Shown here: piece after piece, positions 13,149 through 37,828 of the stretch
How the letters are laid out: each line of letters opens with the position of its first letter
How positions within the stretch are numbered: position 1 is the first letter of the stretch
From: Escherichia coli
GTDB lineage: Bacteria; Pseudomonadota; Gammaproteobacteria; Enterobacterales; Enterobacteriaceae
NCBI RefSeq assembly: GCF_013315695.1
Contig: NZ_CP054356.1
DNA: 64,000 nt
Direction: 5' to 3' (one strand)
Position numbers and translations under genes: made by a program
The notes under the pieces: model-generated
The model's database searches: none
What the model saw: only the letters and a program-made list of their open reading frames with translations
What the model was told of the DNA's origin: nothing

Positions 13149-13151
13149 GTG

Positions 13152-13883
13152 TCAGTCTCCTGTTCCCATAACTTCTTTAATAAATGCCTTTTCTGGAGTT
13201 GTTTCATTATTGGATTGAATAAAATCACTCATATCAGAATAACGATTTATACTATTTTTTGAAAGCATATAGAAGGGGATTTTATCTCTTGTTAATTCAT
13301 CAAAAATATGAGTTGAGAAAAATACCGTTTTCCCGTCAGCGGTGATCTTATTTATCAGTTCCCATAACATCATTCTGTACTGAATATCAATGCCTACAGT
13401 TGGTTCATCCAGTAAAAATAAACGGGCATTTTTGCAAAGCGTTAGCATCAAAGATATGATAAGCCAACGCTTCTCTCCATAACTTACCGTGTAAGTCCTT
13501 TTACGTCTTATTTTATCATAGCGAATGAAAAAATTATCATTCCATTTATGATTAAGCTCTGTCCATGCCTGTTTTTTAGTTAACTTATTGAAGCAGCAAA
13601 TCAAATCAAGAACCTCCTCATTCCTTAGTGTACCTGAAAGATTTATGACTTGAGGTAGACTTACTAATTCTCCACCAGAGAAATTTCGCTTGAGGGTCCC
13701 TTCATAATTACTGACTCCGCCCCTGATAAGGTTAAAAAGAGTGGTCTTCCCGGCTCCATTTTCTCCAAGCAGACCTATCAACTCTCCCTGCTCAATCTTA
13801 AGCGACAGATTATTGAAAACAGGGGGTAAATTTACTTTATATGAAAAGCTCAGAGAGTTGATTTCTAAAAGAGGTATGGTCAT
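13152..13883 (-). CDS. mcbF: Microcin B17 export ABC transporter ATP-binding protein McbF
   Basis: Walker A motif GENGAGKTT and ABC signature region; operon position. Confidence 0.85.
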   Translation of the reverse strand: MTIPLLEINSLSFSYKVNLPPVFNNLSLKIEQGELIGLLGENGAGKTTLFNLIRGGVSNYEGTLKRNFSGGELVSLPQVINLSGTLRNEEVLDLICCFNKLTKKQAWTELNHKWNDNFFIRYDKIRRKRTYTVSYGEKRWLIISLMLTLCKNARLFLLDEPTVGIDIQYRMMLWELINKITADGKTVFFSTHIFDELTRDKIPFYMLSKNSINRYSDMSDFIQSNNETTPEKAFIKEVMGTGD

Positions 13884-14605
13884 TGAGAACTCCAGACTGG
13901 CTCAGTTTTGAAGGTTAGTGCTGAAATAATACTTATGATTAACATTATACTATAGAAAAATATCGTCATCAGAGACAACTCCTGGTCTGACTGGAGTATT
14001 GTAGAATAGATGGCGATAGGATTAACCTGATTTATCCAGTAAACGATCCCCTCATTATATTTTAATGATACAATTCCTGATACCATACAGACAGTTATTA
14101 ATACAGAATAGATAGTGCTGGCTGTTTGGAATGTGACTCTGAACGATGCCATGAAAGTGAGTGAAACCATCATAAATGCATTTATGTATATCGATTTTAA
14201 AATAATCATTACTATTTGATAATCTGGACTTGCCTGGAATCCTGTTAGTACGACTAAAATGAAAAAAAACACATACAAAATAGACATGATAAGTGAGGCT
14301 ATTAATTGAGAACGAATAAATAATAGTCGACCATCCATATTATGCACGAAGGTAGCAATAAAACCACTTTCTCTTCTTCCGACCAGATACAGACAGTAAT
14401 TAAACAGAACAACAGAAAAAGAAATGTAGCCTACAAACCATGATATTTGTTTTCCGAGCCATGCTGTATCACCATAATGAAGTTCAATTTCATTGAAATG
14501 AAGGAAAAAGAACAACACTGTAGGTGACATAATTGTCCATATTAAGCTGAAAGGGGTTCTGATTTGTTCCATCAGAAAAATTATCGCCATTTTTAATGTA
14601 ACCAT
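13880..14605 (-). CDS. mcbE: Microcin B17 export permease McbE, 241 aa
   Basis: Polytopic hydrophobic protein, start overlapping the mcbF neighbour; operon position. Confidence 0.85.
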   Translation of the reverse strand: MVTLKMAIIFLMEQIRTPFSLIWTIMSPTVLFFFLHFNEIELHYGDTAWLGKQISWFVGYISFSVVLFNYCLYLVGRRESGFIATFVHNMDGRLLFIRSQLIASLIMSILYVFFFILVVLTGFQASPDYQIVMIILKSIYINAFMMVSLTFMASFRVTFQTASTIYSVLITVCMVSGIVSLKYNEGIVYWINQVNPIAIYSTILQSDQELSLMTIFFYSIMLIISIISALTFKTEPVWSSQ

Positions 14606-14614
14606 TTGTTATCC

Positions 14615-15805
14615 TTATGGGAATGGTACCATCTTTGATTCTCTGACTTTAATACCGTCCCCGGTATGGTAAATTTTATTATTAATGTTTATTGCACCTG
14701 AGTTATTCATATGAAGGAAAAAATCAGGGCTTACTATTTTTGTGTACCAGACAAGGCTGTTACTTACTCTTTCCCTGGCATAGTAAACAAAAATATTATC
14801 AGAAATTTGTTGAAGATAGTTTAATAAATTTGTGTCTGACGTAATATTTTCCTCAAGCGTTAACTTGACATCATCAGACAGTAGTACCGTATTTTCACAC
14901 AAATCCGTAAACGACTCGTACTTGTTGCATGACATAAAGTGACGCTGGTAACTATCAATAATGTCATCATCAGTATAACCGCCAATAAGAAAGTTGTGCA
15001 GGCATATATACGATTGCCACAATTCCACTACGGATTTACAAAGTGCTTTTTTCAGACTATTAGCATAGGATAATCCGGTACTGTATTTTATTCGACTGAT
15101 TTTGTTTTTTGTGCCATACAGGGTTAGTACTGCGTGTCCAGGAGCTCCGGGCAGGGTGATATCGAAAATCCTGATATCTCCTTCTGACCTGAGAGCCAGT
15201 AAAATCTCATCTATATGATTTATGCCTGTTACTATTTCACTGGATATTTCAGTATTGGCTTTTCCCTGTAACCAGTAAAGAAGGAGGGACTGTCTCTCCA
15301 TAAATTCACACAAGGAACCTTCTATGGCATCGTTCAAACTACCATGAAAGCTACATCCGCATGTATCTCTGTCAGGATAAAATTTCAGATCATCTGCAGC
15401 GGTTATATTGTCGAGTGCAATTATGACTGCAGGTATTTCTTGTTGTTCAAGGCTAAACAGATTAAAGGCTCTGACCGTTTTAAATTTATGGGTTATGATT
15501 TCATCGCGGGTCAGTGATGAGATCTGAAAAAATGCTTCGGTAAAAGCCTTTGCAGCAGATGGAGGCATCATCTCATATAATGTTTTCTGACCACCGGTGA
15601 CTATCTCATTAAAAAAATGACGGCGTTCAAAATATTCACCTATTGCCCCCTGAATTGACTTCAGAGTTTCACCGGCCGCGCTGGCTGGTGTAATACGCTC
15701 ATAGTCCCATATCTGAGAAAACGTTGGCATATTTCTGTTCAGTTTTGGACTCATGGCCATTGTGGCCGGCCATGCGGACATAAGGTTACTGTAGACATTT
15801 ATCAT
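14615..15805 (-). CDS. mcbD: Microcin B17 synthetase McbD (YcaO-type cyclodehydratase), 396 aa
   Basis: Size and position match McbD in the canonical operon. Confidence 0.85.
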   Translation of the reverse strand: MINVYSNLMSAWPATMAMSPKLNRNMPTFSQIWDYERITPASAAGETLKSIQGAIGEYFERRHFFNEIVTGGQKTLYEMMPPSAAKAFTEAFFQISSLTRDEIITHKFKTVRAFNLFSLEQQEIPAVIIALDNITAADDLKFYPDRDTCGCSFHGSLNDAIEGSLCEFMERQSLLLYWLQGKANTEISSEIVTGINHIDEILLALRSEGDIRIFDITLPGAPGHAVLTLYGTKNKISRIKYSTGLSYANSLKKALCKSVVELWQSYICLHNFLIGGYTDDDIIDSYQRHFMSCNKYESFTDLCENTVLLSDDVKLTLEENITSDTNLLNYLQQISDNIFVYYARERVSNSLVWYTKIVSPDFFLHMNNSGAININNKIYHTGDGIKVRESKMVPFP

Positions 15806-16604
15806 CGTTTACATCTCCAAAAAACTGAACGATCAGTGGCGCTACAGTCCTCTGATCCAGATTCATTGTTTTTGCTACGTATGAATCGGTATATCCCGCC
15901 CATACCCGGTTTTTCAGTCCTATTTGATCTGCAACCAATACTGCGTTCTGATACATCGAACCTGTTTCCATTAAGGCCATCCGGTATCCTCTGTAGCGAT
16001 ATTTGAACAAAGCTTTTTCAAAAATAATGCAATAGACGAGAGCAAAATGGGGTTTACCAAGACGTTCCGAATCCCCACCGGACAGGCTTCGGTAGAGTGA
16101 CTGAGTATTACATGTAGCAACAGGTTCCAGTGCCTGACTTAGCGGCAGGTAGTGATAAACATTAGTTCCTGCCTGCCAGTTTTCTGTATTTTCAGATAAT
16201 CTGCATAAAAAAACTTCAATCGGGTACAATGCCCCCCCAGAAGGATAAGGTCTTCTTACAGAGCCAGGATCAGGTGAGCTGAATGCATTGACTAATAACT
16301 TTTCAATAGTACGAATGGAAAGTTTATTTTTGTCGCAAAAGTTTATTCCTGATGGGAGCCTTTCACGACTAAAATTATGTGATGAGGATATGTTTATTAC
16401 GGAGCTGAAACCTGGCCTGAAGAGAACTTCTTTATTTTCAAATTTCTCCAGATGGGCAAGAGGTACCGCGGACACGAAAGTTCGTTCAGCAAATTCGGGG
16501 AGGGAAGCAAAGTTACCTCTGACATGAAAATCTTTAACAATGGCCAGAACTTCAGGATCTGTGTAATGCGTTACTTCCACTAAAGAGAGTTCGTGTTTTG
16601 ACAT
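15786..16604 (-). CDS. mcbC: Microcin B17 synthetase McbC (FMN-dependent dehydrogenase), 272 aa
   Basis: Size and position match McbC. Confidence 0.85.
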   Translation of the reverse strand: MSKHELSLVEVTHYTDPEVLAIVKDFHVRGNFASLPEFAERTFVSAVPLAHLEKFENKEVLFRPGFSSVINISSSHNFSRERLPSGINFCDKNKLSIRTIEKLLVNAFSSPDPGSVRRPYPSGGALYPIEVFLCRLSENTENWQAGTNVYHYLPLSQALEPVATCNTQSLYRSLSGGDSERLGKPHFALVYCIIFEKALFKYRYRGYRMALMETGSMYQNAVLVADQIGLKNRVWAGYTDSYVAKTMNLDQRTVAPLIVQFFGDVNDDKCLQ

Positions 16605-16605
16605 G

Positions 16606-17493
16606 TTATCTCTCCAGACAGCTGCAAGCCTGCCAGTGAATTACCGGCTCTTTACATAAAATACAGGTGATTAAATCAGCGCTAACAGATGACATAAAGT
16701 TATCGACATGACTTTTAACCAGTGAAGTACCTGTCAACTCCTGAAGTCGCCGTTTTATTAAATGATAGCTGAATCCTCTTTCTGATTCGCCTAAAGCCAA
16801 TGCTGGTAGTGTCATTTGGTATTTTTTCAGTAACTGAAGTAAGTTTGCCCAGGACATTTCGTTACGTCTGAAGCTTTTTTCTTCCCTGCTCAGCCATCTC
16901 TCTATATGACAAAAATGGCAGGGAGTACCAAGATCAGGTGAATATACTCCATCTATCCTGAATGACTCCTTTAGGTAGTAGCTTTGGATGAAGGCAACAC
17001 CAGGGTTACTTTCAAATTTTGAATAGATTCTTTTTACAATGTCTGAATGATAGTTTTCGAGATGTAACCAGATTAGTGTTGAATCGCTCACATTAATATT
17101 ATTATCTTTTATATCAATGATATGAGAAACAAAAACACCATCAGATTTCCATTGTTCCCGGGCATTACTGAAAAGATGTGGAACATCGCTTATTATGACT
17201 GAGTTTACCCAGAGAGGTGATGTTTTCGTTTTATTTATCACGCCTGTGGTAATAAGAAACTCTTTGCCCTTGTCTTTATCAATAAGCGATTCGTCCAGTA
17301 GTTTATCAAGGAGGTATTCAGAAATAATACCCTGTTTGGATCGTAGGCTTTCGAGTACTTTTTTCATTCCCTCATGTGTAATGTCTACTGAAGAAATGTA
17401 GGTAATAAGCAGGGTCTTTGTATTTCTGGAAATTATCTCAAACGGCAGAATATTGATCATATCTTTTCCTTTTTTAATATCAGGGAGCACCAT
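16606..17493 (-). CDS. mcbB: Microcin B17 synthetase McbB (zinc-binding scaffold/cyclodehydratase subunit), 295 aa
   Basis: Size and position match McbB; Cys-containing C-terminus. Confidence 0.85.
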   Translation of the reverse strand: MVLPDIKKGKDMINILPFEIISRNTKTLLITYISSVDITHEGMKKVLESLRSKQGIISEYLLDKLLDESLIDKDKGKEFLITTGVINKTKTSPLWVNSVIISDVPHLFSNAREQWKSDGVFVSHIIDIKDNNINVSDSTLIWLHLENYHSDIVKRIYSKFESNPGVAFIQSYYLKESFRIDGVYSPDLGTPCHFCHIERWLSREEKSFRRNEMSWANLLQLLKKYQMTLPALALGESERGFSYHLIKRRLQELTGTSLVKSHVDNFMSSVSADLITCILCKEPVIHWQACSCLER

Positions 17494-17519
17494 GCTCCCT
17501 GAACGGTTAATTCAACGTA

Positions 17520-17729
17520 TCAGATATGTGAACCACTTCCGCCGCTGCCACCGTTTCCACCACTACAACCGTTGCTGCAACCACCACAACCGCCACCTTG
17601 ACCACCGCAGCTACCGCCGCCGCCGCCGCCGCCACCACCACCAATGCCAACACCTAATGGAGACTGGCGTGATAATTTAAGAGCATCAACGGACAAAACT
17701 ACACCAAATTCACTCGCTTTTAATTCCAT
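17520..17729 (-). CDS. mcbA: Microcin B17 precursor peptide McbA, 69 aa
   Basis: Translation MELKASEFGVVLSVDALKLSRQSPLGVGIGGGGGGGGGGSCGGQGGGCGGCSNGCSGGNGGSGGSGSHI is the recalled pro-MccB17 (leader plus Gly/Ser/Cys core). Confidence 0.95.
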   Translation of the reverse strand: MELKASEFGVVLSVDALKLSRQSPLGVGIGGGGGGGGGGSCGGQGGGCGGCSNGCSGGNGGSGGSGSHI

Positions 17730-19113: not shown

Positions 19114-19467
19114 TTAGTTTATTAACTTCATCGCATTCTTTTTTGTCTCCTCATCACTTTTTTGCTCCGATTGTGAAGAGGACTGAATGATTGTTGAAGA
19201 ATTTAAATCGGCCATCTCTTTTGGAAATAGCGATCTCAATATATTCACGATATCTGAAAATGTGGTTTCTTTCGTCAGCAGTTCACATAAAAGGAAAGGG
19301 GCCCTGGGATCTTGTCTGTATAAGGCCAGACCTGCCGTCAGTGCAGCCCGGTTAAGGCGGCTGCGTTCCCCTTGCGGGATACTGTCCAGTGTATCACAAA
19401 CAATTTTATCTGTTTGATTTACATCTGGATTTAGCTTAAAGGCAATGGTTCTGCGCTTGTCCATCAT
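19114..19467 (-). CDS. parR: Plasmid partition centromere-binding protein ParR (StbB), 117 aa
   Basis: Translation [55 protein letters not shown]... matches the recalled R1/R100 ParR. Confidence 0.85.
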   Translation of the reverse strand: MMDKRRTIAFKLNPDVNQTDKIVCDTLDSIPQGERSRLNRAALTAGLALYRQDPRAPFLLCELLTKETTFSDIVNILRSLFPKEMADLNSSTIIQSSSQSEQKSDEETKKNAMKLIN

Positions 19468-20429
19468 TAATTACCTATGAGATACATACCGTTAACTAAA
19501 TCATATTGAGAGTTATTGGTTTTAAAAAAACGTTCATCACGAATCTGTGTGTGTTTTTTTACTGCATCGCATATTAATTCTGCGCCACCACCTATAACCA
19601 TAACATGAGTATAACCAGAAAATTCATTGAGTGTATTTAATACACGTTGCTCAAGTTTACGAAGTGCTTCATTCATTGCTTCGGTGACTATTGATATTTT
19701 ATTCTCATCATTAATTCGTTGCTTCAGATAGTTATTATCTTTTCTGTGAATAATTATATCGTCAGCAAGATAGCTACTTCCTTTTGTTCTCGCAAGAGAA
19801 AGGGCATCTTTTACTGCAGATGTGACCAGAGATACACCAAGAGATGAGTCTCCGTATATTTTACTGATTCCCGATAATTTCCCCATTACCTGAGAAATAT
19901 CTAATGTGGTGCCCCCGAGATCTATAATTAATAAAGAATCTAACTCATCCAGTTCTTGTAGAACTTCATAACCTGCCGGTATAGATTCAGGCATGACTTT
20001 TACATCTTTTATTGTGAATGTATCCCCACCATTTAATGTAATTTTTTTCCGGAAGTTTGCTTTCTTACGCTCAATATTTTCCGTATTGGGTTGGTTATTC
20101 CTGTCGTAATACTCTGTCAGAGGAAGTGTGCAAACAATATCCACTTCGCTTACCGGCAGACCACTGGTCAGTAAGGCGTGGTGCACCGCAACGACATTAA
20201 CGTCGCTGTATTGCCATGCGATATTGGTTGTGACTACAGCATCCGGGCTGATTGGATCAAATGAATACTGTTCGCCGTTCAGTGTGTAGTTAAAGACCTT
20301 TTTATCACCAAAAGAAACTGCCCACTCGCGTTTGAAGCTGTTCGGGCTAATGTGCTGTTTAATTGTTCCGTCGCTTTCCTGCCACTGTAGTTTGATGTTT
20401 GTTGAACCGTCATCAATGAATACCAACAT
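19467..20429 (-). CDS. parM: Actin-like partition ATPase ParM (StbA), 320 aa
   Basis: Translation [42 protein letters not shown]... matches the recalled R1 ParM; stop of parM abuts the parR start. Confidence 0.9.
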
Positions 20430-20600
20430 TTATAAAACTCCTTATGGTGTTTTTTTTGGTGTTTGTTTGGGTGTGTTTTGGGTTTTAAGTGGGTTTATTT
20501 GTCAAGTTTACCCCATTTTAACTATCAATCAATGATTATTTGTCTTGTTTTGGTGTTTTATTGGGTTTGGAGTGGGTTGTTTTTGGGTTTTGTTTGGCGG
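20430..20600. promoter_or_regulatory. parC: parC centromere/promoter region with tandem gggttt/ggtgttt-type iterons
   Basis: Immediately upstream of parM: repeated short units ttttggtgtttgtttgggtgtgttttgggtttt...ttggtgttttattgggtttggagtgggttgtttttgggttttgtttgg. Confidence 0.55.
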
Positions 20601-20610
20601 ATAACAAAAG

Positions 20611-20920
20611 ATGTCGCCGGGCTCCTCTTTTTACTGCGCCGGCTGACGCGGCGCGGCAGGAACGCTGCCTGTGGTCAGTGTCCCGCGTCCGGCCGGGCAC
20701 GGGACGGGCGCTTTTACCGCTCCCGGCTGGCGTCGGTGACAGTGTACGCCAGCCCGTCGCCCTTTTCTGATGAGCGCCCTTCAAGCCGCTTTCGCGGCAT
20801 AGCCTTGCCGTCAAAAAGACGACGGCTGCGGTATTCCACGGTCGGCCTGACCCGTTACCGGGCGCGGTGAACAGCCCACAGGCAGCGGGGAACGGGCGCC
20901 ACAGGGGCGCCCTCCCGATG
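20611..20920. repeat. Leading-region repeat family R1, copy a (about 310 bp, GC-rich, hairpin-rich)
   Basis: Near-identical to 21916-22230; each copy sits directly upstream of a plus-strand ORF; a short partial match occurs at 24473-24510. Confidence 0.5.
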
Positions 20921-20940
20921 CTCCTGTGAGGATAATTCCC

Positions 20941-21867
20941 ATGCCAAACTGGTGCTCGAATCGTATGTATTTTTCTGGTGAACCGGCACAGATCGCTGAG
21001 ATTAAACGACTGGCCAGCGGTGCAGTCACACCGTTTTATCGCCGCGCCACAAATGAAGGTATTCAGCTGTTTCTGGCCGGAAGTGCCGGACTTCTGCAGA
21101 CCACTGAAGATGTGCGGTTTGAACCATGCCCCGGACTGACGGCTGCCGGACGTGGTGTTTTATCGCCGGAGAATATCACGTTCACCCGCTGGCTGAAGCA
21201 CCTGCAGGACGGTGTACTGCTGGATGAGCAAAACTGCCTGATGCTGCATGAACTCTGGCTGCAGAGCGGTACTGGACAGCGTCGCTGGGAAGGGTTACCG
21301 GATGATGTCAGGGAAACTATCACTGTGCATTTCACCGCAAAAAGAGGTGACTGGTGTGACATCTGGGGTAACGAGGATGTATCGGTGTGGTGGAACCGTC
21401 TGTGTGACAACGTACTGCCGGAAAAAACCATGCCGTTTGACCTGCTGACGGTTTTGCCGACCCGCCTGGATATTGAAGTGAATGGCTTTAACGGCGGTGT
21501 TCTGAACGGTGTTCCTTCTGCATATCACTGGTATACAGAACGGTATGGCGTGAAGTGGCCTTGTGGGTATGACCTGAATATCAGCAGTCAGGGGGAAAAC
21601 TTCATTCAGGTAGATTTCGACACGCCGTGGTGTCAGCCGGAAAGCGACGTTGTTGCAGAATTAAGCCGCCGTTTCGGCTGCACGCTGGAGCACTGGTACG
21701 CCGAACAGGGCTGCAATTTCTGTGGCTGGCAGTTGTATGAGCGCGGAGAGCTTGTTGATGTGCTGTGGGGGGAACTGGAATGGTCTTCCCCGACAGATGA
21801 CGATGAGCTGCCGGAAGTCACCGGACCTGCGTGGATAGTCGACAATGTGGCGCATTATGGCGGATGA
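20941..21867 (+). CDS. Conserved leading-region protein of unknown function, about 308 aa (N-terminus MPNWCSNRMYFSGEP)
   Basis: ORF with a GAGG Shine-Dalgarno about 10 nt upstream of the ATG at 20941; family not confidently recognised. Confidence 0.55.
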   Translation: MPNWCSNRMYFSGEPAQIAEIKRLASGAVTPFYRRATNEGIQLFLAGSAGLLQTTEDVRFEPCPGLTAAGRGVLSPENITFTRWLKHLQDGVLLDEQNCLMLHELWLQSGTGQRRWEGLPDDVRETITVHFTAKRGDWCDIWGNEDVSVWWNRLCDNVLPEKTMPFDLLTVLPTRLDIEVNGFNGGVLNGVPSAYHWYTERYGVKWPCGYDLNISSQGENFIQVDFDTPWCQPESDVVAELSRRFGCTLEHWYAEQGCNFCGWQLYERGELVDVLWGELEWSSPTDDDELPEVTGPAWIVDNVAHYGG

Positions 21868-21915
21868 AGTATGACGGAGACGGGCGGGCAACCGCCCGTT
21901 TCTTTTCCGGTAAAG

Positions 21916-22230
21916 GATGTCGCCGTGCTCCTCTTTTTACTGCGCCGGCTGACGCGGCGCGGCATAAACGCTGCCTGTGGTCAGTGTCCCGCGTCCGGTG
22001 GGCACGGGACGGGCGCTTTTACCGCTCCCGGCTGGCGTCGGTGACAGTGTACGCCAGCCTGTCGCCCTTTTCTGATGAACGCCCTTCAAGCCGCTTTCGC
22101 GGCATAGCCTTGCCGTCAGAAAGACGACGGCTGCGGTATTCCACGGTCGGCCTGACCCGTTACCGGACGCGGTGAACAGCCCACAGGCAGCGGGGAACGG
22201 GCACCACAGGGGTGCCCTCCCGGTGCCCTC
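21916..22230. repeat. Leading-region repeat family R1, copy b
   Basis: See copy a; ends at the AAGGAG RBS of the methyltransferase gene. Confidence 0.5.
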
Positions 22231-22250
22231 TGTAAGAGAAGGAGTTTTGT

Positions 22251-22934
22251 ATGTCCCGTTTTGTCCTCGGTAACTGCATCGATGTTATGGCCCGTATTCC
22301 TGATAACGCCATTGATTTCATACTGACTGACCCGCCGTACCTCGTCGGTTTCCGTGACCGTTCCGGGCGCACCATTGCCGGTGATGTTAATGATGACTGG
22401 CTGCAACCTGCCAGCAATGAGATGTACCGCGTACTCAAAAAAGACGCGCTGATGGTCAGCTTCTACGGCTGGAACCGTGTCGATCGCTTTATGGCCGCCT
22501 GGAAACGCGCCGGATTCAGCGTGGCAGGGCACCTCGTGTTCACCAAAAACTACACATCCAAATCTGCGTATGTCGCGTACCGTCACGAATGCGCTTACAT
22601 CCTGGCAAAGGGCAGTCCGGCCCGGCCCCGTAACCCTCTGCCGGATGTGCTGGGCTGGAAATATTCAGGCAATCGTCATCACCCGACGGAAAAGCCCGTT
22701 ACCAGCCTGCAACCACTGATTGAGAGCTTCACACATCCGAACGCGATTGTGCTGGACCCGTTTGCAGGCAGCGGCTCAACCTGCGTCGCTGCCCTCCAGT
22801 CCGGACGCCGGTATATCGGTATCGAGCTGCTTGAACAGTATCACCGTGCCGGACAGCAACGACTGGCCGCCGTGCAACGGGCCATGCAGCAGGGGGCCGC
22901 GAATGATAACTGGTTTGAACCGGAGGCTGCGTAA
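22251..22934 (+). CDS. Orphan DNA N6-adenine methyltransferase (DPPY motif), 227 aa
   Basis: Motif ILTDPPYLVGF and a C-terminal DPFAGSGST SAM-binding motif (permuted order typical of beta-class N6/N4 MTases); no adjacent restriction endonuclease gene. Confidence 0.8.
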   Translation: MSRFVLGNCIDVMARIPDNAIDFILTDPPYLVGFRDRSGRTIAGDVNDDWLQPASNEMYRVLKKDALMVSFYGWNRVDRFMAAWKRAGFSVAGHLVFTKNYTSKSAYVAYRHECAYILAKGSPARPRNPLPDVLGWKYSGNRHHPTEKPVTSLQPLIESFTHPNAIVLDPFAGSGSTCVAALQSGRRYIGIELLEQYHRAGQQRLAAVQRAMQQGAANDNWFEPEAA

Positions 22935-23156
22935 ATGAACTATGCCGGACACGAAAAACTTCGCGCCGACGTGGCGGAGGTGGCCAACACCATGTGTGAC
23001 CTTCGGGCCAGGCTGAACGATATGGAGCATCGCTGTCGCTTTGATTCCGATGTGCTTGTTGAACGCCTGACACGCCAGACGCTGTATCGCGCCAATCGCC
23101 TGTTCATGGAGGCGTATACCGAAATTCTGGAACTGGATTCCTGCTTCAAAGATTGA
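22935..23156 (+). CDS. Small hypothetical protein, 73 aa
   Basis: ORF abutting the methyltransferase stop; no recognised motif. Confidence 0.35.
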   Translation: MNYAGHEKLRADVAEVANTMCDLRARLNDMEHRCRFDSDVLVERLTRQTLYRANRLFMEAYTEILELDSCFKD

Positions 23157-23169
23157 GAAGGAGACGAGA

Positions 23170-23604
23170 ATGTACGGAACATGCGAAACGCTATGCCGGG
23201 AGCTGGCAGCAAAGTATTCGGGAGACACGCCACTGATGCTGGTTATCTGGTCCCCGGAAGAAATTCAGGCCCTCTCTGACGGAATGGATATTGCCCTGAC
23301 CGATCATGAAATCAGGACTGTCCTGGCGCGCCTGGAGGACATCCCGGAAGACCAGCGGACTGAATCCGGTATTTCTTCCGGCGTGGCGATGGAGATCATC
23401 AATAACGTGAGCGAAAACCGCCAGGTGACTGTCCCTGCTGAACTGCTGGCGTCCCTGATTCAGACCGCTGAACAGGCATTGTGGAAACGTGAATGGGCCG
23501 CCCGGGATCATGGCCTCGCCGTCCCGGAATGCGTCACCCGCCGTCAGGCGGTGGTTAATCAGGTCCGCATCCTGCTGAAAAACAACACACACGAAAACGA
23601 CTGA
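23170..23604 (+). CDS. Hypothetical leading-region protein, 144 aa (paralogous to 25307-25726)
   Basis: Shares an MY.T start, an LTD.E..TV..RL.D block and a VTVPA.LL block with the ORF at 25307-25726. Confidence 0.5.
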   Translation: MYGTCETLCRELAAKYSGDTPLMLVIWSPEEIQALSDGMDIALTDHEIRTVLARLEDIPEDQRTESGISSGVAMEIINNVSENRQVTVPAELLASLIQTAEQALWKREWAARDHGLAVPECVTRRQAVVNQVRILLKNNTHEND

Positions 23605-23648
23605 TGTTATCGCCGCCTCCGGGCGGCGATACAGGGAGTTCATGAATT

Positions 23649-24419
23649 ATGAATGAAATGCTGAATGCACTGATTTATCGCCACGCCAGCAACCTGTTGC
23701 TGGCGCAGGGCTGGCCGGAAGAGACGGATGTTGACCAGCGTAACCCGAAGTATCCGGGCTGGATCAGCATTTACGTGCGGCTGGATGCGCCCCGGCTGGC
23801 GACGTTACTTATCAAGCGTCACGGCGGCGTACTGCCGCCGCTCCTGGCCTCTGCCATTCAGAAACTGACCGGAACCGGAGCGGAACTTGTTCTGTCCGGC
23901 AGTCAGTGGCAGTCGCTGCCGGTACTTCCGGCAGACGGAACGCAGGTGTCTTTCCCGTATGCCGGTGAGTGGCTGGCAGAGGACGAAATCAGGGCCGTTC
24001 TTGGTGCGGTACGCGATGCAGTATGCAGTGTCAGTTACCAGGTGGCAGAAGATGCGCGGCGTATCCGTGCGGCGCTGACCACCACCGGTCAGACGTTGCT
24101 GACCCGCCAGACGCGCCGCTTTCGCCTGGTGGTGAAGGAAAGCGATCACCCCTGCTGGCTCGATGAAGACGACGAAAACCTGCCCGTGGTGCTCGATGCC
24201 ATCCTGAACCGGGGCGCTCGTTTTTCGTCGGTGGAAATGTATCTGGTCAGTGAGTGTGTGGAGCATATCCTGTCCAGTGGGCTGGCCTGCGATATGCTGC
24301 GTATACCGGATGAACCGCCCCGCCGCTGGTTTGACCGTGGTGTTCTGCGGGAGGTGGTCCGGGAAGCCCGGAACGAAATCCGCAGCATGGCGGATGCCCT
24401 GGCAAAAATCCGGAAATGA
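23649..24419 (+). CDS. Hypothetical leading-region protein, 256 aa
   Basis: Uninterrupted ORF in the same orientation as neighbouring leading-region genes; no recognised motif. Confidence 0.5.
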
Positions 24420-24566
24420 TGACGCTGGCGGGGAAAAATCTCCGCCTTTTCCAGTCGGTCCCCGGAAAGAGCAAAAGGATGTCGCCGCAGGCTCCTCTTT
24501 ACCCGGCCATGTGGGGCATGGCCTTGTGGGTTTTCAGTTATGTGGCCTCAGCGTCGTGTGCGGGCT

Positions 24567-24792
24567 GTGCCGTGCCTCCATCGTAGCCGGGCTTCTGCGG
24601 GCGGGTTGCAAGGTAAGGTGAACCGCTGCGGTCACCCGGTCCCTCCTTCCCGTCTGCCGTGATTTTCCGGTCGTTCACCCGCTCAGATTTCGCGGTCTCA
24701 CCCTTCAACTCCCGTCAGCCGTGCGCGTCAGGCTGCGGCTTCCCTTGCGCCCTTGCAACCCTGCAGGCCCGGCAAAGATGGAGGCACGGCAC
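24567..24792. other. Long imperfect inverted repeat (about 45-bp arms at 24567-24612 and 24751-24792) upstream of klcA; candidate ssDNA hairpin (ssi/Frpo-like)
   Basis: Arm 1 gtgccgtgcctccatcgtagccgggcttctgcgggcgggttgcaagg and reverse complement of arm 2 gtgccgtgcctccatctttgccgggcctgcagggttgcaagg, read directly. Confidence 0.5.
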
Positions 24793-24834
24793 CGCCCGGT
24801 GTCGCGGAATATGTGAACAACGGAGGAAAACATC

Positions 24835-25260
24835 ATGCAATATGCGAAACCTGTCACTCTGAACGTTGAAGAGTGTGACCGTCTCTCCTTTCTGCCTTAC
24901 CTGTTTGGCAACGATTTTCTGTATGCCGAGGCGTATGTGTACGCGCTGGCGCAAAAAATGATGCCGGAATATCAGGGAGGCTTCTGGCATTTCATCCGCC
25001 TGCCGGACGGTGGCGGTTACATGATGCCGGATGGCGACCGTTTTCATCTGGTCAACGGTGAAAACTGGTTTGACCGCACTGTGAGTGCTGATGCCGCAGG
25101 TATCATCCTGACTTCCCTTGTGATTAACCGCCAGTTGTGGCTGTACCACGACAGCGGGGATGCGGGACTGACACACCTTTACCGGATGCGCGATGCGCAG
25201 TTGTGGAGCCACATCGAATTTCACCCCGAATGCAATGCGATTTACGCGGCACTTGACTGA
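24835..25260 (+). CDS. klcA: Antirestriction protein KlcA/ArdB family, 141 aa
   Basis: Translation [53 protein letters not shown]... matches recalled KlcA/ArdB proteins of F-like and IncP plasmids. Confidence 0.8.
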
Positions 25261-25306
25261 TTAACGGACGGGGCGGCGATGCCGCCCCTGTAAAGGAGAC
25301 GAGAAC

Positions 25307-25726
25307 ATGTACTGTACTGTTAAAGAAATTATCCGCGAAGTGCTGGATACAGACGTGCCGGACAGTGAATGCGTTTTTGCCGTGGTGCTGACCCGTGGGG
25401 ATGTGCGTCACATAGCCCAGGACTGGAGTCTGACAGACGATGAGCTGGAAACCGTCATGCAGCGGCTGGACGATGCCTTTGAGCATGGTGCTGATGTCAG
25501 CATTGTTCACGACGTTGTTCGTGAACTGATGGAGGAAAAGCGCGTAAACCGTCTTGTAACAGTCCCTGCGGTGCTGCTGGAAAAAGTGATGGTGATGGCT
25601 GGTAGTGAAATTTATCGCCTCCATGCTGTAGGGAGCGAGAACGGGGGCGACGGTGACGCATTTGTCAGGGAAGAACGTGAGATTATGCGGGTGATGCGTC
25701 AGGCGCTGGACGGGGAGAATGGGTAA
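25307..25726 (+). CDS. Hypothetical leading-region protein, 139 aa (paralogous to 23170-23604)
   Basis: See 23170-23604. Confidence 0.5.
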   Translation: MYCTVKEIIREVLDTDVPDSECVFAVVLTRGDVRHIAQDWSLTDDELETVMQRLDDAFEHGADVSIVHDVVRELMEEKRVNRLVTVPAVLLEKVMVMAGSEIYRLHAVGSENGGDGDAFVREEREIMRVMRQALDGENG

Positions 25727-25917
25727 TGAATATCAGCAAGGAAACCCGCGAAATTCTGCGTAATTACAGGGCCGTGATTAATGCGCGGCGTCGTGAAATG
25801 GGGCAGAAACCGCTCACCACCGCGCAGATTGTTGATGAAATATGTGATTTTGTGGTGAATCAGCAGGCTGTTTTCCTCGGTGGTCACTACATCCTTCAGG
25901 GCAGCAGGCACAGGTGA
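25726..25917 (+). CDS. Small hypothetical protein, 63 aa
   Basis: ORF start overlapping the upstream stop (ATGA); basic N-terminal half. Confidence 0.3.
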   Translation: MNISKETREILRNYRAVINARRREMGQKPLTTAQIVDEICDFVVNQQAVFLGGHYILQGSRHR

Positions 25918-26109
25918 TACAGGGCAGGCGGTGGAGGCCGCCTGTCAGCCCGCGCGAAAACCCCTGGCAGGCTGGCGCCTGCCGGAAGGGAAGCGGGCCA
26001 CGCTGGCGCGTCGCCCGTTACCCTTCCCGTTTGTGATGTGTCCGGAATGTTTTTTCCTGATGTTATGTTTCTGTGGTTACTGTTCTTCTTCTTCCTCTTC
26101 TTTCCGTTC

Positions 26110-26650
26110 CTCTCCTGTTTATGCCTTTTCCGGGCGTCCCCCTGGCGGGGCGGGCTGTCGTGAACGGAGCCAGCGGAGCTGTCTCCGCCCTGGCGGGCTT
26201 CCATCCCTGACGCAAAACCCCGGGTTTGCAGCGACCGGAACGGTCGCGCCACCCCTGTCGCGCCGTGGCCTGCGCTCCCGGCATCCCGGCAAAAAGACGC
26301 CGGGATGTAAGGAGCAACGCCGTTTCGCAAACCGCGCTTCACGTCGTTGCAGCGGGTCCCTGCTCATTGCCTGCCGGGTGCCACACACCCGTATGAGTCC
26401 CTGTCGCCGGGGGCATAGACAGCCACAACCTGCCGCACTGACTGTCCAGGGTAAATGAACAGCCCACAAAATTTTTTACCTAAAACCCGGTAAAAAATTT
26501 TGCGTTCTGCCCAGGACAGGTGCGTCAGGCCGTGGCAGTGATGCCCCTTGCGGCGAAGGTTCTCAAACGGGTGAAGTTCATACCACAGGGAATACAGCAG
26601 CAGGTTCCCGCGAAACGTCAAAACCGCGGCTCCCGAAACTCAACGGGTGA
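26110..26650. repeat. Leading-region repeat family R2 (Frpo/ssi-like ssDNA promoter candidate), copy 1
   Basis: About 540 bp alignable to 29390-29935 and 34800-35370; shared core ggtaaatgaacagcccacaaaattttttacc.aaaacccggtaaaaaattttgcgttctgc...gtcaaaaccgcggctcccgaaactcaac; preceded by a TTC/CTC-rich simple tract. Confidence 0.5.
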
Positions 26651-26884
26651 TGTTCTTTAAAAATCAGGATTTATTTCAGGCTCCGGCAATACGCATTTAT
26701 GTGTTCTGTCAGTCATCCGGCTGGCAGGTAATGAAAACGCAGGAACAGAAGGAGGAAAACACCGGAAAGCGTCAGATGCAGATATGAAAAAAAGCAGGTC
26801 AGGGACCTGCTTAATCCACGCCGTAAGAATTGTGCGACCAATTTTGACGGCATTGTTAACCAATTTGTCATAAGGAATCCATTT

Positions 26885-27115
26885 ATGACTGTAAGCATTG
26901 TTTCACCTTCCGCAGCGGCTGTAAAGCCCCGCCGTCATCCCCGTTTCAGACGCGAAGACATCCCCGCGCCGGAACTTGACCCCGTGCTGAAAGCCTTCGG
27001 GCGACACATTGCCCGGAGTTTTCGCCGGGGGCGTGGTGTACACATCCCCGCCATGAAAAACACGGCCTTCGGGCAGGTGCTCCGCACACTCGAACTGAAA
27101 CGCGCTTTTAACTGA
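26885..27115 (+). CDS. Small basic hypothetical protein, 76 aa
   Basis: Arg-rich ORF downstream of R2 copy 1. Confidence 0.3.
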   Translation: MTVSIVSPSAAAVKPRRHPRFRREDIPAPELDPVLKAFGRHIARSFRRGRGVHIPAMKNTAFGQVLRTLELKRAFN

Positions 27116-27166
27116 TGAGGTGAGCCGCCCCGCGAGGGGCGGCAACAGACGGAAGGAGAACATTTT

Positions 27167-28528
27167 ATGACATTAGCAGCAATCACCATGACCGCCCCGG
27201 AAGCCGCCAGCCCTGTGCAGATGTACCGCGCGACCTACTCACCGGATGACAACAAACTGCGCCTGTATGCCGTGTCACGTCTTGACCCGGAGACGTATAA
27301 AAAAGTGCATGATGCCGGTTTTCGCTGGGCACCAGAACAGGCGCTGTTTGTGGCTCCAGCCTGGACACCGGGCCGGGAAGACGTGCTCCTCTCACTTGCC
27401 GGAGAGATTGAGGATGAAGACAGCACGCTCGCTGAACGTCAGGAAGCACGGGCGGAGCGGTTTACCGGATACAGCGGAAAGCGGGCCAGTGAATCCGCAC
27501 AGGCACTTGATGAAGTGGAAAGACTGGCCGCGATGATCCCGCCCGGTCAGCCCATTCTTGTGGGGCATCACAGCGAACGCCGCGCCCGTCGTGATGCGCA
27601 GCGTATTGAAAACGGCATGAAACGTGCCGTGATGCTCTTTGAACGTGCGGAATACTGGGAAGAACGTGCGCGGTCGGCACTGCTTCACGCGAAGTATAAA
27701 GAACGTCCGGACGTTCGCTGGCGTCGTATCAAAAAAATCGAAGCTGATTTGCGCAAGGCTGAAAAGACCATCGCACAGTCGCAGAAATATCTGACGATGT
27801 GGCGGGCTGAATCGCTGGATCTGAATATGGCAAAACTCATCAGCAGTCATGACCATATCAGCGCCTGTTTCCCGCTGGATACGTATCCGCGCCCGGCAGA
27901 AAAAAGCCAGTATGAAGGAAGTCGATCGTTATGGTCGGCCCTGGATGATGACATCATCACCACGGAGCAGGCCCGCGAAATTGCGATCCGCTGTCATGAA
28001 CGGCAGATTCAGCATCAGCAACGCTGGGTTAACCACTATCAGAACCGCCTGATCTATGAGCGTGCCATGCTGGACGAAAGCGGCGGCGTGGTTACCCGGA
28101 CACAGGATTTTGAGCCGGGCGGACAGGTTTTCAGCCGGGGCGAGTGGCTGACCATCATCCGCGTGAACAAAAGCAACGGGGCGGTGAGTTCAGTCACAAC
28201 GCCGAATTACAGTTTTCTCGGGTACAGCGGCACGATGAAAGTGACGCCCGATCGCATCACGGACTACAAAGCACCATCGGCAGAAGAGGCTGCCGTCGCC
28301 AGCCAGGCCGCGAAGCGTCCGCCGGTAGTCAACTATCCGGGGGAAGGTTTCCGGGAAATGACAAAGGCGCAGTGGGCCGCCCTGCCCCGGGACTGTAAGG
28401 CCGTGCGCAGTGTGGCAGAGACAGAAGACCACGGGGCATACCGCTACCGCCGCACAATGGACAATAATTTCCGCCTGGTGAATGTGTATATCACCGACAT
28501 GAAAATCACGGAAATCCCGCAGAAATAA
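27167..28528 (+). CDS. Conserved leading-region protein of unknown function, 453 aa
   Basis: Long uninterrupted ORF with a GGAGAA RBS; no catalytic motif recognised. Confidence 0.6.
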   Translation: MTLAAITMTAPEAASPVQMYRATYSPDDNKLRLYAVSRLDPETYKKVHDAGFRWAPEQALFVAPAWTPGREDVLLSLAGEIEDEDSTLAERQEARAERFTGYSGKRASESAQALDEVERLAAMIPPGQPILVGHHSERRARRDAQRIENGMKRAVMLFERAEYWEERARSALLHAKYKERPDVRWRRIKKIEADLRKAEKTIAQSQKYLTMWRAESLDLNMAKLISSHDHISACFPLDTYPRPAEKSQYEGSRSLWSALDDDIITTEQAREIAIRCHERQIQHQQRWVNHYQNRLIYERAMLDESGGVVTRTQDFEPGGQVFSRGEWLTIIRVNKSNGAVSSVTTPNYSFLGYSGTMKVTPDRITDYKAPSAEEAAVASQAAKRPPVVNYPGEGFREMTKAQWAALPRDCKAVRSVAETEDHGAYRYRRTMDNNFRLVNVYITDMKITEIPQK

Positions 28529-29138: not shown

Positions 29139-29389
29139 TGACTCCGGGCAGGCGGGAGGATAAATGCCCGTCTGCCCGCGCCGGGAAAAGACCGCGCGCC
29201 GGTGGCGCTGAAAGGGGCCGCGCTTACGCGCCGCCCCTTTCATTACGCGGACGTTCTGCTGTGGGCTTCTGTCTTTTCAGACCTGTCATTTGCCTGTTAC
29301 TGATGATGTTGTTGTTCCTGCTACTGCTACTGCTACTGCTACTGCTACTGTTCTTCTTTTTTCTGCTGCTCTGATTACTGTCTGTTTTG

Positions 29390-29935
29390 TTGTTCTCCTG
29401 CTTATGCCTTTTCCGGGCGTCCCCCTGGCGGGGCGGGCTGTCGTGAACGGAGCCAGCGGAGCTGTCTCCGCCCTGGCGGGCTTCCATCCCTGACGCAAAA
29501 ACCCGGGTTTGCAGCGACCGGAACGGTCGCGCCACCCTTGTCGCGCCGTGGCCTGCGCTCCCGGCATCCCGGCAAAAGACGCCGGGATGTAAGGAGCAAC
29601 GCTGTTTCGCAAACCGCGCTTCACGTCGTTGCGGCGGGTCCCTGCCCGTTGTTCTGTCCGGTGCCATTCACCTGTTTAAGCCCCTGTCGCCGGGGGCTGA
29701 TACAGCCACAACCTGCCGCACTGACTGTCCAGGGTAAATGAACAGCCCACAAAATTTTTTACCCAAAACCCGGTAAAAAATTTTGCGTTCTGCCCAGGAC
29801 AGGTGCGTCAGGCCGTGGCAGTGATGCCCCATGCGGCGAAGGTTCTCAAACAGGTGATGGTGAATACCGGAGGGAACAAAAGGCAGGTCCCCGCAAAACG
29901 TCAAAACCGCGGCTCCCGAAACTCAACAGATGATG
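29390..29935. repeat. Leading-region repeat family R2 (Frpo/ssi-like), copy 2, directly upstream of ssb; preceded by a (CTGCTA)5 microsatellite at 29318-29350
   Basis: See copy 1; microsatellite read directly. Confidence 0.5.
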
Positions 29936-29968
29936 GGGGCTGAAAACATCAACAGAAGGAGACACATC

Positions 29969-34469: not shown

Positions 34470-34799
34470 CAACCTGGAGGCGGGCGCAGGCCCGCCTTTT
34501 CAGGGCTGATGCTGGTCTGACTGCACTGAAGCGCCTTTATAAAGGGGCTGCTGGTTCGCCGGTGGCCCCTTTCTCCTTGCTGGCATTGTACGGGCATGAA
34601 CAACCAGACTGCCAGGAAGGCCGTTTCCCTCCGGGAACGGGGATGAACGTGCGCCTGCGGCGCCCGTTCTTTTCCCCCGCCTTCTCTGTTTATGACTTAC
34701 CAGAAATCACATCACCTTCCCTTTGATTATTCTCTTTTTCCTCCTGCTCTGACTCTGATTACTGCTCTGACTCTGATTACTGCTGCCCTGATTATTGTC

Positions 34800-35370
34800 T
34801 GTTTTGTTGTTCTCCTGCTTATGCCTTTTCCGGGCGTCCCCCTGGCGGGGCGGGCTGTCGTGAACGGAGCCAGCGAAGCTGTCTCCGCCCTGGCGGGCTT
34901 CCATCCCTGACGCAAAACCCCCGGCTTGCAGCGACTGTTCCGGTCGCGCCGCCTCTGTCGCGCCGTGGCCTGCGCTCCTGGCATCCCGGCAAAAGGCCGC
35001 CGGGATGTAAGGCGCAACGCCGTTTCGCAAACCGCGCTTCACGTCGTTGCGGCGGGTCCCTGCCCGTTGTTGTGTCCGGTGCCATTCACCTGTTTAAGCC
35101 CTGTCGCCGGGGCTGATAGTTGATACAACCTGCCGCACTGACTGTCCGGTAAAATGAACAGCCCACAAAATTTTTTACCCAAAACCCGGTAAAAATTTTG
35201 CGTTCTGCTCCAGACAGGTGCGTCAGGCCGTGGCAGGTGATGCCCCTGCGGCGAAGGTTCTCAAACAGGTGATGGTGAATACCGGAGGAACAAAAGGCAG
35301 GTCCCCGCAAAACGTCAAAACCGCGGCTCCCGAAACTCAACAGATGATGGGGGCTGAAAACATCAGATAC
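34800..35370. repeat. Leading-region repeat family R2 (Frpo/ssi-like), copy 3; preceded by a tandem 18-bp unit (ctgactctgattactgct x2) at 34748-34783
   Basis: See copy 1; ends at the RBS (caggagga) of the ORF at 35381. Confidence 0.5.
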
Positions 35371-37415: not shown

Positions 37416-37439
37416 TTTTCCACCTCTGGTGACTTTATC

Positions 37440-37810: not shown

Positions 37811-37828
37811 CAAAAAAGGTAATCTCTA

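Follow-up and report, generated by a model that had tools for sequence, protein, structure and literature searches.

Gene content and plasmid setting

The 64,000-nucleotide stretch of DNA analyzed here, hereafter the window, contains two short plus-strand open reading frames, designated a and b. In agreement with the first-pass annotation, a encodes 144 residues beginning with MYGT and b encodes 139 residues beginning with MYCT. These genes and their neighbors are listed in Table 1. The window aligns to the IncFIA plasmid NZ_CP024888.1 with 99.84% identity over 27.8 kb, and by sequence comparison it represents an IncF leading region. The leading-region setting had been proposed earlier and was borne out by the conjugative plasmid context, with anti-restriction, methylase, ssb and psiB genes around the pair. 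The oriT region lies at ~37420–37832 of the window, between the SLT gene and traM; both genes are ~11.7–14.6 kb from it and point toward it. With the established transfer polarity of F, both occupy a leading-region position and are oriented with the transferred strand as template. The pair is carried by F, by R64 and by more than 5000 PLSDB plasmids, and around it the F and R64 plasmids show the gene order of the window.

Table 1. Features surrounding the two open reading frames, in window coordinates.
Feature	Coordinates	Strand	Evidence
Long imperfect inverted repeat 5' of methylase operon	21969–22192	.	arms 31 nt, 84% complementary
Orphan DNA adenine methylase, 227 aa, heads operon a	22251–22934	+	Pfam N6_N4_Mtase E=1.6e-38
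YubE-family protein, 73 aa	22935–23156	+	phrog_4830 E=1e-36
DUF1380 paralog a, YubF/YcgB type	23170–23604	+	PF07128, 175 bits
256-aa protein (yffB of F; YubG/YchA type), ends operon a	23649–24419	+	phrog_8919 E=3e-134
Long inverted repeat 5' of ardB/klcA	24561–24798	.	arms 32 nt, 91% complementary
ArdB/KlcA-type antirestriction protein, 141 aa (yfgB of F), heads operon b	24835–25260	+	PF03230 Antirestrict E=1.8e-26
DUF1380 paralog b, YubJ/YcjA/YcgC type	25307–25726	+	PF07128 21 bits; hhalign 95.5%
Basic 63-aa protein	25726–25917	+	start overlaps stop of b (TAATG, 25724–25728)

Genes a and b are internal cistrons of two separate leading-region operons. Operon a comprises the orphan methylase (NCBIfam PRK13699, 489 bits), YubE, DUF1380a and the 256-aa protein; operon b comprises ArdB/KlcA, DUF1380b and the 63-aa protein. 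A terminator-like site (24510–24528) follows the 256-aa gene, and none was found within either operon. The earlier statement that a larger gene precedes each open reading frame holds only loosely: the methylase is one gene removed from a, whose immediate 5' neighbor is the much shorter YubE gene, and the ArdB/KlcA gene preceding b is close to b in size. The 73-aa protein itself had no match in our Pfam search, while its homologs carry PF27407:YubE in precomputed tables. The 256-aa protein likewise lacked a Pfam match; a primer from the Fraikin preprint, “yffB up F”, falls inside its F homolog. The ArdB/KlcA protein is 98% identical to that of F. The 63-aa protein has a pI of 10.0 and no family match in Pfam, NCBIfam or PHROGs, and an open reading frame of 58–63 aa is also found 3' of type b genes in F, R64 and the lineages L006 and L008. 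The overlap between the stop codon of b and the start codon of the 63-aa gene suggests translational coupling.

Homology, predicted fold and ancestry of the pair

The two sequence blocks on which the proposed relationship had rested were found in register, LTDxExxTVxxRLxD at residues 43–57 of a and 42–56 of b, and VTVPAxLL at residues 86–93 and 84–91. Formal alignment placed the similarity far above chance: BLASTP reported 28% identity over 116 aa (E=1e-9); the Smith-Waterman score of 98 was reached by none of 5000 shuffles (30.2 ± 5.3; z=12.8; Gumbel p about 5e-8); and hhalign of the two family profiles returned a probability of 95.5% (E=1.6e-8 over 98 columns). Both proteins also match phrog_9024. 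The contrary reading, that the resemblance reflects chance or composition, or that the open reading frames are not genes, draws on the low identity and on nothing else. Besides the significance tests, it is contradicted by strong Shine-Dalgarno sites on both genes, dN/dS values well under 1, retention in more than 5000 plasmids and confident AlphaFold2 (AF2) models; it is vanishingly improbable, and we regard it as already refuted.

Pfam counts a whole protein as a member of DUF1380 (PF07128) from a gathering score of 26 bits upward. Protein a scored 175.3 bits (E=8.7e-52) across model positions 1–137 of 137, and b scored 21.0 bits, covering positions 1–106 only. Protein b thus falls below the cut-off and by the Pfam rule is no member, but it is a DUF1380 homolog by hhalign, BLASTP and predicted helix order, and its NCBI label is “DUF1380 family protein”. 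From these comparisons the two open reading frames are ancient paralogs of the DUF1380 family. A ribosome-binding block, AAGGAGACGAGA, is common to both and lies 5' of each gene; for a, the Shine-Dalgarno GAAGGAG lies 7 nt upstream. RefSeq models of a-type genes, at 172–184 aa, have the start set too far upstream; the ribosome-binding site, together with the MYGT N-terminus seen across the family, puts the start of a at 23170. The yfhA of PMC10104558 proved to be the ParB-like gene and does not belong to DUF1380.

The pair itself is already known, as RefSeq names both “DUF1380 family protein”. Paralog a corresponds to YubF of F (also YcgB, YceB or YfcB), with 91% identity to it and 90% to the R64 protein; it follows the methylase and YubE as in F, with no difference of substance. 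The counterpart of b is F YubJ (also YcjA, YcgC, YfeC or Orf52), 86% identical and 85% for R64, which likewise sits after ArdB/KlcA and before the 63-aa open reading frame. The b allele of the window is a minority one: among the best 5000 PLSDB records, 148 are at least 99% identical to it and 4692 are 80–90% identical. In Samuel et al. 2024 the a and b types are families 7 and 14 (3957 and 3145 members), both listed as uncharacterized, ranking 7th and 14th among leading-region-enriched gene families, and assigned to strand=1, the strand transcribable from the T-strand.

The AF2 models of a (pLDDT 86.2) and b (pLDDT 82.4) are all-helical, contain no beta sheet and share an identical helix order. 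Both are small acidic proteins (a, pI 4.71, net charge −10; b, pI 4.51, net charge −15). In the models, the N-terminal part appears to form a conserved small four-helix domain, joined through what seems a nearly invariant linker, R-x-V-T-V-P-A, to a predicted C-terminal hairpin of antiparallel helices, which is not the same in types a and b. Searches against solved structures returned nothing significant with single sequences or with the family profile.

This fold bears on the names in circulation. The UniProt-derived names “Adenine-specific methyltransferase” and “Antirestriction KlcA” have been given to numerous members of families 7 and 14 (Samuel et al. 2024), which would make a and b small DNA adenine methyltransferases or antirestriction proteins, and the family 14 label in their table is methyltransferase/KlcA. 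Neither protein resembles the neighboring methylase (BLASTP E=1.3 and 2.7), neither matches a Pfam methylase or Antirestrict model or an NCBIfam methylase, and PF03230 was matched only by the 24835–25260 neighbor. A Rossmann-type methyltransferase is ruled out because the models are all-helical without a beta sheet. The methyltransferase label for DUF1380 is thus refuted by sequence and predicted fold, the methyltransferase/KlcA reading is exceedingly improbable, and family 14 is here a diverged DUF1380 paralog. The misleading names most likely spread from neighboring genes or from the mis-fused gene calls P0032, P0097 and P0227.

A neighbor-joining tree and an identity matrix resolved types a and b as separate clades, a split that extends across four plasmid lineages and is seen in F and R64, in a plasmid of Pectobacterium type and in two lineages from metagenomes. 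In the contexts considered (the window, F, R64, and lineages L003/4, L006 and L008/9), a follows methylase-YubE and b follows ArdB/KlcA, and the order Mtase-YubE-a ... Antirestrict-b is kept in distant lineages at only 26–42% identity. Duplication followed by divergence, as proposed, stands insofar as a and b are strongly diverged paralogs; a local or recent event in the window plasmid does not, because the two types form separate clades across plasmid lineages. The duplication is instead ancient and fixed. Copy number varies across plasmids, with the pair in F and R64 and a single DUF1380 gene in the IncL/M plasmid pOXA-48. Unlike the IncF pair, the pOXA-48-type protein (WP_004187342.1, 136 aa) is encoded by one copy only; the gene also lies in the leading region, adjoining klcA and ssb. 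It sits ahead of klcA, with a 101-aa open reading frame coming next, at a locus without the methylase-YubE module. The protein belongs to the same family and falls in a third clade. Like type b, a third clade follows an Antirestrict gene.

By pairwise identities, a and b are the fastest-diverging genes of the block. Between L003 and L009, KlcA is 78% identical, a 42% and b 37%; between the window and L006, the methylase is 80% identical, a 35% and b 36%. The dN/dS values (0.23–0.33 for a, 0.18–0.36 for b, and 0.18–0.36 over both) indicate purifying selection, and whole-gene positive selection was not seen, dN/dS being below 0.4 throughout.

Upstream inverted repeats and probable early expression

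Each operon is preceded by a long inverted repeat. The minus strand of 21900–22250 folds at −97.8 kcal/mol (z=−5.7), and the repeat region 5' of the methylase shares 96% identity with the corresponding stretch before the F methylase; this putative hairpin promoter for single-stranded DNA is homologous to the element before the M.EcoGIX-type methylase of F and pESBL. The minus strand of 24440–24834 folds at −95.5 kcal/mol (z=−4.35), and the repeat region 5' of ardB/klcA, the homolog of F ssp2, shares 88% identity with the intergenic region between yffB and yfgB of F. The plus strand within 21800–27200 yielded no sigma-70-like promoter.

In F, ssp2 is a single-stranded-DNA promoter and replication roadblock (bioRxiv 10.64898/2026.01.09.698686); it drives yfgB and the genes downstream, and its deletion lowers transfer into RM-bearing strains (Fraikin preprint). 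A class 3 single-stranded-DNA promoter precedes M.EcoGIX, and the KlcA and M.EcoGIX operons of F and pESBL are zygotically induced (PMC12672017). According to this literature, such promoters are active on the single strand as it enters the cell, and the recipient would thus produce a and b transiently and within minutes of DNA entry. From these operon-level statements we infer co-transcription and early expression of both cistrons. Taken together, the identity and expression context of the two genes as proposed here are very probable.

Candidate roles in plasmid establishment

Taking paralog identity, operon and expression context and an establishment role as a whole, we consider this the best explanation and somewhat better than an even prospect, a grade that blends the high confidence in identity and context with the lower confidence in an anti-defense function. 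In their most likely mode of action, a and b would act as protein-binding establishment factors that probably neutralize or modulate host barriers beside the ArdB and methylase modules. An activity common to both would reside in the N-terminal domain that they share, and partners or oligomerization specific to each paralog would come from the divergent hairpin. The first-pass suggestion that the two copies could differ in target specificity agrees with the data, in that the shared N-terminal domain and linker are conserved and the C-terminal hairpin differs.

An anti-defense role is a plausible candidate, rated a little short of even. No experiment or homology ties DUF1380 to any defense system, and no anti-defense activity was reported for it in the literature searched. 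DUF1380 proteins had no match in PADLOC, NCBIfam or PDB sequence profiles, a PHROGs search of the pair reached only families without assigned function, and tblastn found no match to the pair in phage genomes. A profile search of a 5.8-billion-protein set gave 1039 matches, and the 120 listed were close relatives with no informative domain architecture. With dN/dS below 1, there is no arms-race sign at the whole-gene level, and a weakly constrained helical scaffold could explain the high divergence of a and b just as well. More speculative, and doubtful at present, is the proposal that DUF1380 constitutes an unrecognized early-expressed establishment or anti-defense family, in which the old a/b duplication, retained next to the methylase and ArdB modules, would yield two effectors that share the N-terminal domain and use the hairpins against different host barriers or as the missing in vivo cofactor of ArdB/KlcA.

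The conserved neighborhoods raise the alternative that each DUF1380 protein is not an independent effector and serves as an adaptor, chaperone or regulator of the protein encoded beside it: b with ArdB/KlcA or the 63-aa protein, and a with YubE or the methylase. Wherever a lineage has upstream sequence, an Antirestrict gene stands immediately before type b or the third clade (the window, F, R64, L003/4, L006/7, L008/9, L005 and L012), and a directly follows YubE in five of the six lineages where both are seen. The gene overlap joins b to a protein of opposite charge (pI 4.5 against 10.0). KlcA/ArdB reportedly block type I restriction in vivo, not in vitro, which would fit a missing cofactor. 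Set against this, the single DUF1380 gene of pOXA-48 lies upstream of klcA with the 101-aa open reading frame between, and klcA there is followed by a different, 94-aa open reading frame. Evolutionary rates are also uncoupled, with KlcA 78% identical where b is 37%. R64 ArdB is reported to inhibit RM by itself, in work cited by the Fraikin preprint. YubE+DUF1380 and KlcA+DUF1380 database “fusions” (P0125–P0153, P0032, P0097) look like frameshift or assembly artifacts; they contain frame-shifted or truncated segments and are mostly singletons from assemblies. We consider such a dedicated partnership unlikely.

A role in establishment outside defense, in single-stranded DNA handling, complementary-strand timing or host reprogramming as proposed for the ParB-like YfjB (PMC13370423), would fit the early-expression context equally. 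PsiB, SSB and YfjB are leading-region proteins with roles outside defense, and purifying selection without a gene-wide positive-selection signal is in keeping with it. The net charges of −10 and −15, though, make direct DNA binding unlikely, neither protein showed similarity to any DNA-processing family, and divergence faster than that of the neighbors is easier to reconcile with variable targets than with a conserved housekeeping partner; we judge this reading rather improbable. The preferred explanation remains that of early-expressed, protein-binding establishment factors.

Most IncF and IncI plasmids, the main antibiotic-resistance vehicles in Enterobacterales, carry both genes, and one of the two operons measurably aids transfer into restriction-proficient strains (Fraikin preprint). 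As the pair sits in both single-stranded-DNA-switched operons, its members are obvious candidates for operon contributions beyond ArdB and the methylase. The pairing of a and b is itself no discovery; the modest additions are that family 14 is a DUF1380 paralog and not a methylase, that the duplication is ancient, and that a and b diverge fastest within the block.

Among known systems, the closest parallels are ArdA, Ocr and ArdB/KlcA. No sequence or fold similarity between these and the DUF1380 pair was detected, and DNA mimics carry a charge far more extreme than the −10 to −15 of the pair. The likeness lies elsewhere: ArdA, Ocr and ArdB/KlcA are small, acidic products of leading- or early-region genes expressed at entry, as the DUF1380 proteins would be, and ArdB/KlcA is the immediate upstream neighbor of b.

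Two diverged DUF1380 paralogs

The first-pass annotation had marked two ORFs of the plasmid leading region, ORF a (DUF1380a, YubF type) and ORF b (DUF1380b, YubJ type), as a paralogous pair with two sequence blocks in common. Both ORFs are present, and BLASTP (residues 1–115 of a against 1–113 of b; 28% identity, 50% positives, E=1e-9) aligns the LTDxExxTVxxRLxD and VTVPAxLL blocks in register. The Smith-Waterman score of 98 compares with 30.2 ± 5.3 for 5000 shuffles of b (z=12.8), none of which scored as high (Gumbel p ~5e-8), and profiles of the a and b relatives align with an hhalign probability of 95.5% (E=1.6e-8). The paralogy is upheld by these comparisons; the similarity is genuine and spans the N-terminal two thirds, while the C-terminal thirds could not be aligned to each other. 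The same ribosome-binding block, AAGGAGACGAGA, precedes both ORFs. RefSeq/PGAP models of DUF1380a extend too far upstream (172 aa here, 23086–23604; 184 aa in the F plasmid) and run into yubE in a different frame; an N-terminal MYGT found across the family, position 1 of the Pfam model and a GAAGGAG Shine-Dalgarno sequence argue for 23170 as the true start.

ORF a covers the whole Pfam DUF1380 model (PF07128) at 175 bits. Because ORF b reaches just 21 bits, short of the 26-bit gathering score, over model positions 1–106 only, and PHROG 9024 gives the same pattern for the two proteins, b is best regarded as a diverged sister of DUF1380 and not a formal Pfam member. The pair is already recorded in databases and literature, without an assigned function, as the DUF1380 genes (YubF/YubJ) that F-like and I-like plasmids carry, as RefSeq/PLSDB annotation and a published family survey attest. 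Window positions 10200–37996 are 99.84% identical to the IncFIA plasmid NZ_CP024888.1, in which RefSeq names both products 'DUF1380 family protein', as in the classical F plasmid and R64; at least 5000 PLSDB records carry this label for each of a and b. The R64 copy of a is intact, though absent from the PLSDB table, and the b allele of the window is a minority type among the best 5000 PLSDB records. In the survey, family 7 (3957 members; YcgB/YceB/YfcB/YubF; median gene 19 from oriT) and family 14 (3145 members; YcjA/YcgC/YfeC/YubJ; median gene 15) are uncharacterized, and both show significant leading-region enrichment (Samuel et al., Nature 2024, PMC11541004, Supplementary Table 1).

AlphaFold2 models built from a 28-sequence alignment (pLDDT 86.2 for a, 82.4 for b; pTM ~0.56) have an identical helix order: four helices in residues ~5–82, a nearly invariant R-x-V-T-V-P-A segment (R84, V86, V88, L93 and A100 of a at least 90% conserved) and a long antiparallel helical hairpin. 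Each protein is acidic (a, pI 4.71, net charge −10; b, pI 4.51, net charge −15). A Foldseek search of the PDB returned nothing at E<1, and the BFVD yielded one uncharacterized 92-aa Erwinia phage protein (E=5.5e-3, TM 0.69 on target), which probably matches the modeled N-terminal domain; there is no informative structural neighbor among the PDB and BFVD searches. No match came from searching the sequences of solved structures, NCBIfam or PADLOC. There is no support for the 'adenine-specific methyltransferase' label that many database entries carry and that Samuel et al. give to family 14: neither protein resembles the adjacent methylase or matches methylase models, and the all-helical predicted fold also counters it.

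Operon context and probable early expression

Features of the DUF1380 operons and their surroundings, in window coordinates
Feature	Coordinates	Strand	Remark
mcb operon	~12585–17729	−	
parM	19467–20429	−	
T/G-rich units	20439–20601		
~315-nt direct repeat	20606–20921; 21912–22226		
29-nt box	20606–20634; 21912–21940; 24474–24502		
DUF1281 gene	20926–21867		
Hairpin of operon a	21969–22192		
Methylase	22251–22934		operon a
YubE	22935–23156		operon a
ORF a	23170–23604	+	144 aa; operon a
256-aa protein	23649–24419		operon a, after DUF1380a
Terminator-like site	24510–24528		operon a, after the 256-aa gene
Hairpin of operon b	24561–24798		
ArdB/KlcA	24835–25260		operon b, before DUF1380b
ORF b	25307–25726	+	139 aa; operon b
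Basic 63-aa ORF			operon b; ATG overlaps b stop (TAATG, 25724–25728)
~540–630-bp repeat	26111–26652; 29321–29951; 34741–35365		
AS-pc01 match	26789–26890	−	
Its terminator-like site	26812–26792		
Its promoter-like site	26925–26897		
oriT region	~37.4–37.8 kb		between SLT gene and traM

The leading-region location of the pair holds, with both genes facing oriT from ~12–14.5 kb away. The polarity of F transfer is established; given this and the plus-strand orientation, the transferred strand is the template for a and b. The minus strand upstream of operons a and b folds far better than shuffles (z=−5.7 and −4.35, respectively), and the upstream regions share 96% and 88% identity with their F counterparts. 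A sigma-70-like promoter was looked for on the plus strand of 21800–27200, and none was found.

Operons of KlcA and M.EcoGIX homologs are induced in transconjugants of F and the IncI1 plasmid pESBL, the single-stranded-DNA (ssDNA) promoters of klcA and ardA forming class 2 and that of M.EcoGIX class 3 (PMC12672017). The F ssDNA promoter ssp2, between yffB and yfgB (the ArdB/KlcA gene), is a roadblock to complementary-strand synthesis cleared by UvrD, a helicase of the host, and transfer to RM-bearing strains falls 5- to >21-fold when ssp2 is deleted (10.64898/2026.01.09.698686). One primer from that preprint maps within the F homolog of the 256-aa gene, which makes this gene yffB; by the ssp2 and operon layout, DUF1380b is the gene right after yfgB under ssp2, and DUF1380a lies in the methylase operon. 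Both are conserved, translated and constrained genes, the two leading-region operons that hold them are documented as zygotically induced from ssDNA promoters, and we infer early expression of the a and b cistrons themselves.

Several neighboring elements were also observed. The ~315-nt repeat (95–97% identical) is the same hairpin-forming element before the DUF1281 and methylase genes, and because it is shared with the methylase upstream region, the DUF1281 operon probably has the same ssDNA promoter class. The 29-nt box, AAAGGATGTCGCCG..CTCCTCTTT.AC, lies just 5' of each of the three hairpin elements, even the one before ardB/klcA, which is unrelated in other respects. Leading-region operons are separated at three places by a repeat of ~540–630 bp (copies 88–95% identical), probably a Frpo/ssi class 1 single-stranded promoter: downstream of the DUF1380b operon, and in the intergenic stretches upstream of ssb and downstream of hok. 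A match to the Rfam family AS-pc01 (the pHK01 antisense RNA; 79.4 bits, barely over gathering), with its own promoter-like and terminator-like sites, runs antisense to the beginning of the next operon. T/G-rich units at 11–12 nt spacing form two clusters directly upstream of parM; by analogy with the R1 parC locus they resemble a parC-type centromere with iterons. Just past parMR is a complete microcin B17 (mcb) operon, recognized by 99.8% identity to NZ_CP024888.1 (TOMM precursor, McbB, SagB-type dehydrogenase, YcaO-like protein, McbE with ABC immunity/export genes, and pentapeptide-repeat protein).

Divergence, copy number and possible function

The DUF1380 family is narrow: a full HMMER search over 1.84 billion representatives at 50% identity gave only 124 clusters at E≤1e-3, mostly fragments, and among the matches listed, all plasmids with a named host belong to Enterobacterales. 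The gene order methylase-YubE-a ... ArdB/KlcA-b(-58/63 aa) recurs in a Pectobacterium-type plasmid and in two lineages known from metagenomes, with members 26–42% identical; a third clade (P0337, P0338) likewise lies downstream of an anti-restriction gene. In a neighbor-joining tree all proteins after YubE group together, as do all those after KlcA, so the duplication is older than these plasmid lineages. The first-pass annotation had proposed duplication and divergence within an anti-defense island, with target specificities that could differ between the copies. This reading is upheld in part: paralogy, strong divergence and leading-region context stand, the duplication is ancient instead of local, and the two copies may differ in target.

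Across plasmids, a and b are the quickest to diverge within the block. Between the window and L006, a distant locus, identity is 80% for the methylase, 55% for YubE, 40% for KlcA, 35% for a and 36% for b; between L003 and L009, two further distant loci, it is 78% for KlcA, 42% for a and 37% for b (methylase and YubE not applicable). Comparing F, R64 and the window gives a dN/dS of 0.23–0.33 for a and 0.18–0.36 for b, against 0.06–0.16 for KlcA and 0.11–0.13 for the methylase. Selection on the pair is purifying, if relatively relaxed; gene-wide positive selection was not seen in this comparison. Over 22251–25917, neighboring genes differ several-fold in dS against F (methylase 0.53, yubE 0.06, a 0.18, klcA 0.16, b 0.41), which points to a recombination mosaic within both operons.

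Tentatively, and at somewhat less than even odds, a and b may be establishment or anti-defense effectors that share a core but have paralog-specific surfaces, and would act in the recipient as protein-binding factors in the first minutes after entry. This reading fits their small size, their acidity and the lack of any enzymatic motif; it also fits an N-terminal domain and linker that are conserved where the hairpin is clade-specific, the speed of divergence, and the fact that both copies have been kept beside an orphan methylase and an anti-restriction gene. An establishment role unrelated to defense seems improbable. Two of the most abundant leading-region families, both lacking an assigned function, now belong to operons for which early expression has been demonstrated and a phenotype can be measured.

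The main alternative, which we consider unlikely, is that each DUF1380 protein partners the product of a neighboring gene. Type b always comes directly after ArdB/KlcA, and the stop of b overlaps the first codon of the basic ORF (58–63 aa across the window, F, R64 and L006) by 4 nt in F (L002, 9647–9650), R64 (L010, 15370–15373) and L006 (6426–6429), an overlap suggesting that the acidic b and the basic small protein are translationally coupled; set against this, evolutionary rates are uncoupled, ArdB is reported to be active autonomously, and the IncL/M arrangement differs. Copy number varies among plasmid families: IncL/M plasmids of the pOXA-48 type have, in place of the pair, a single DUF1380 gene (L014, 9001–9411, in NZ_CP039962.1) of the third clade, located upstream of klcA with a 101-aa ORF next after it, and lack the methylase-YubE module.
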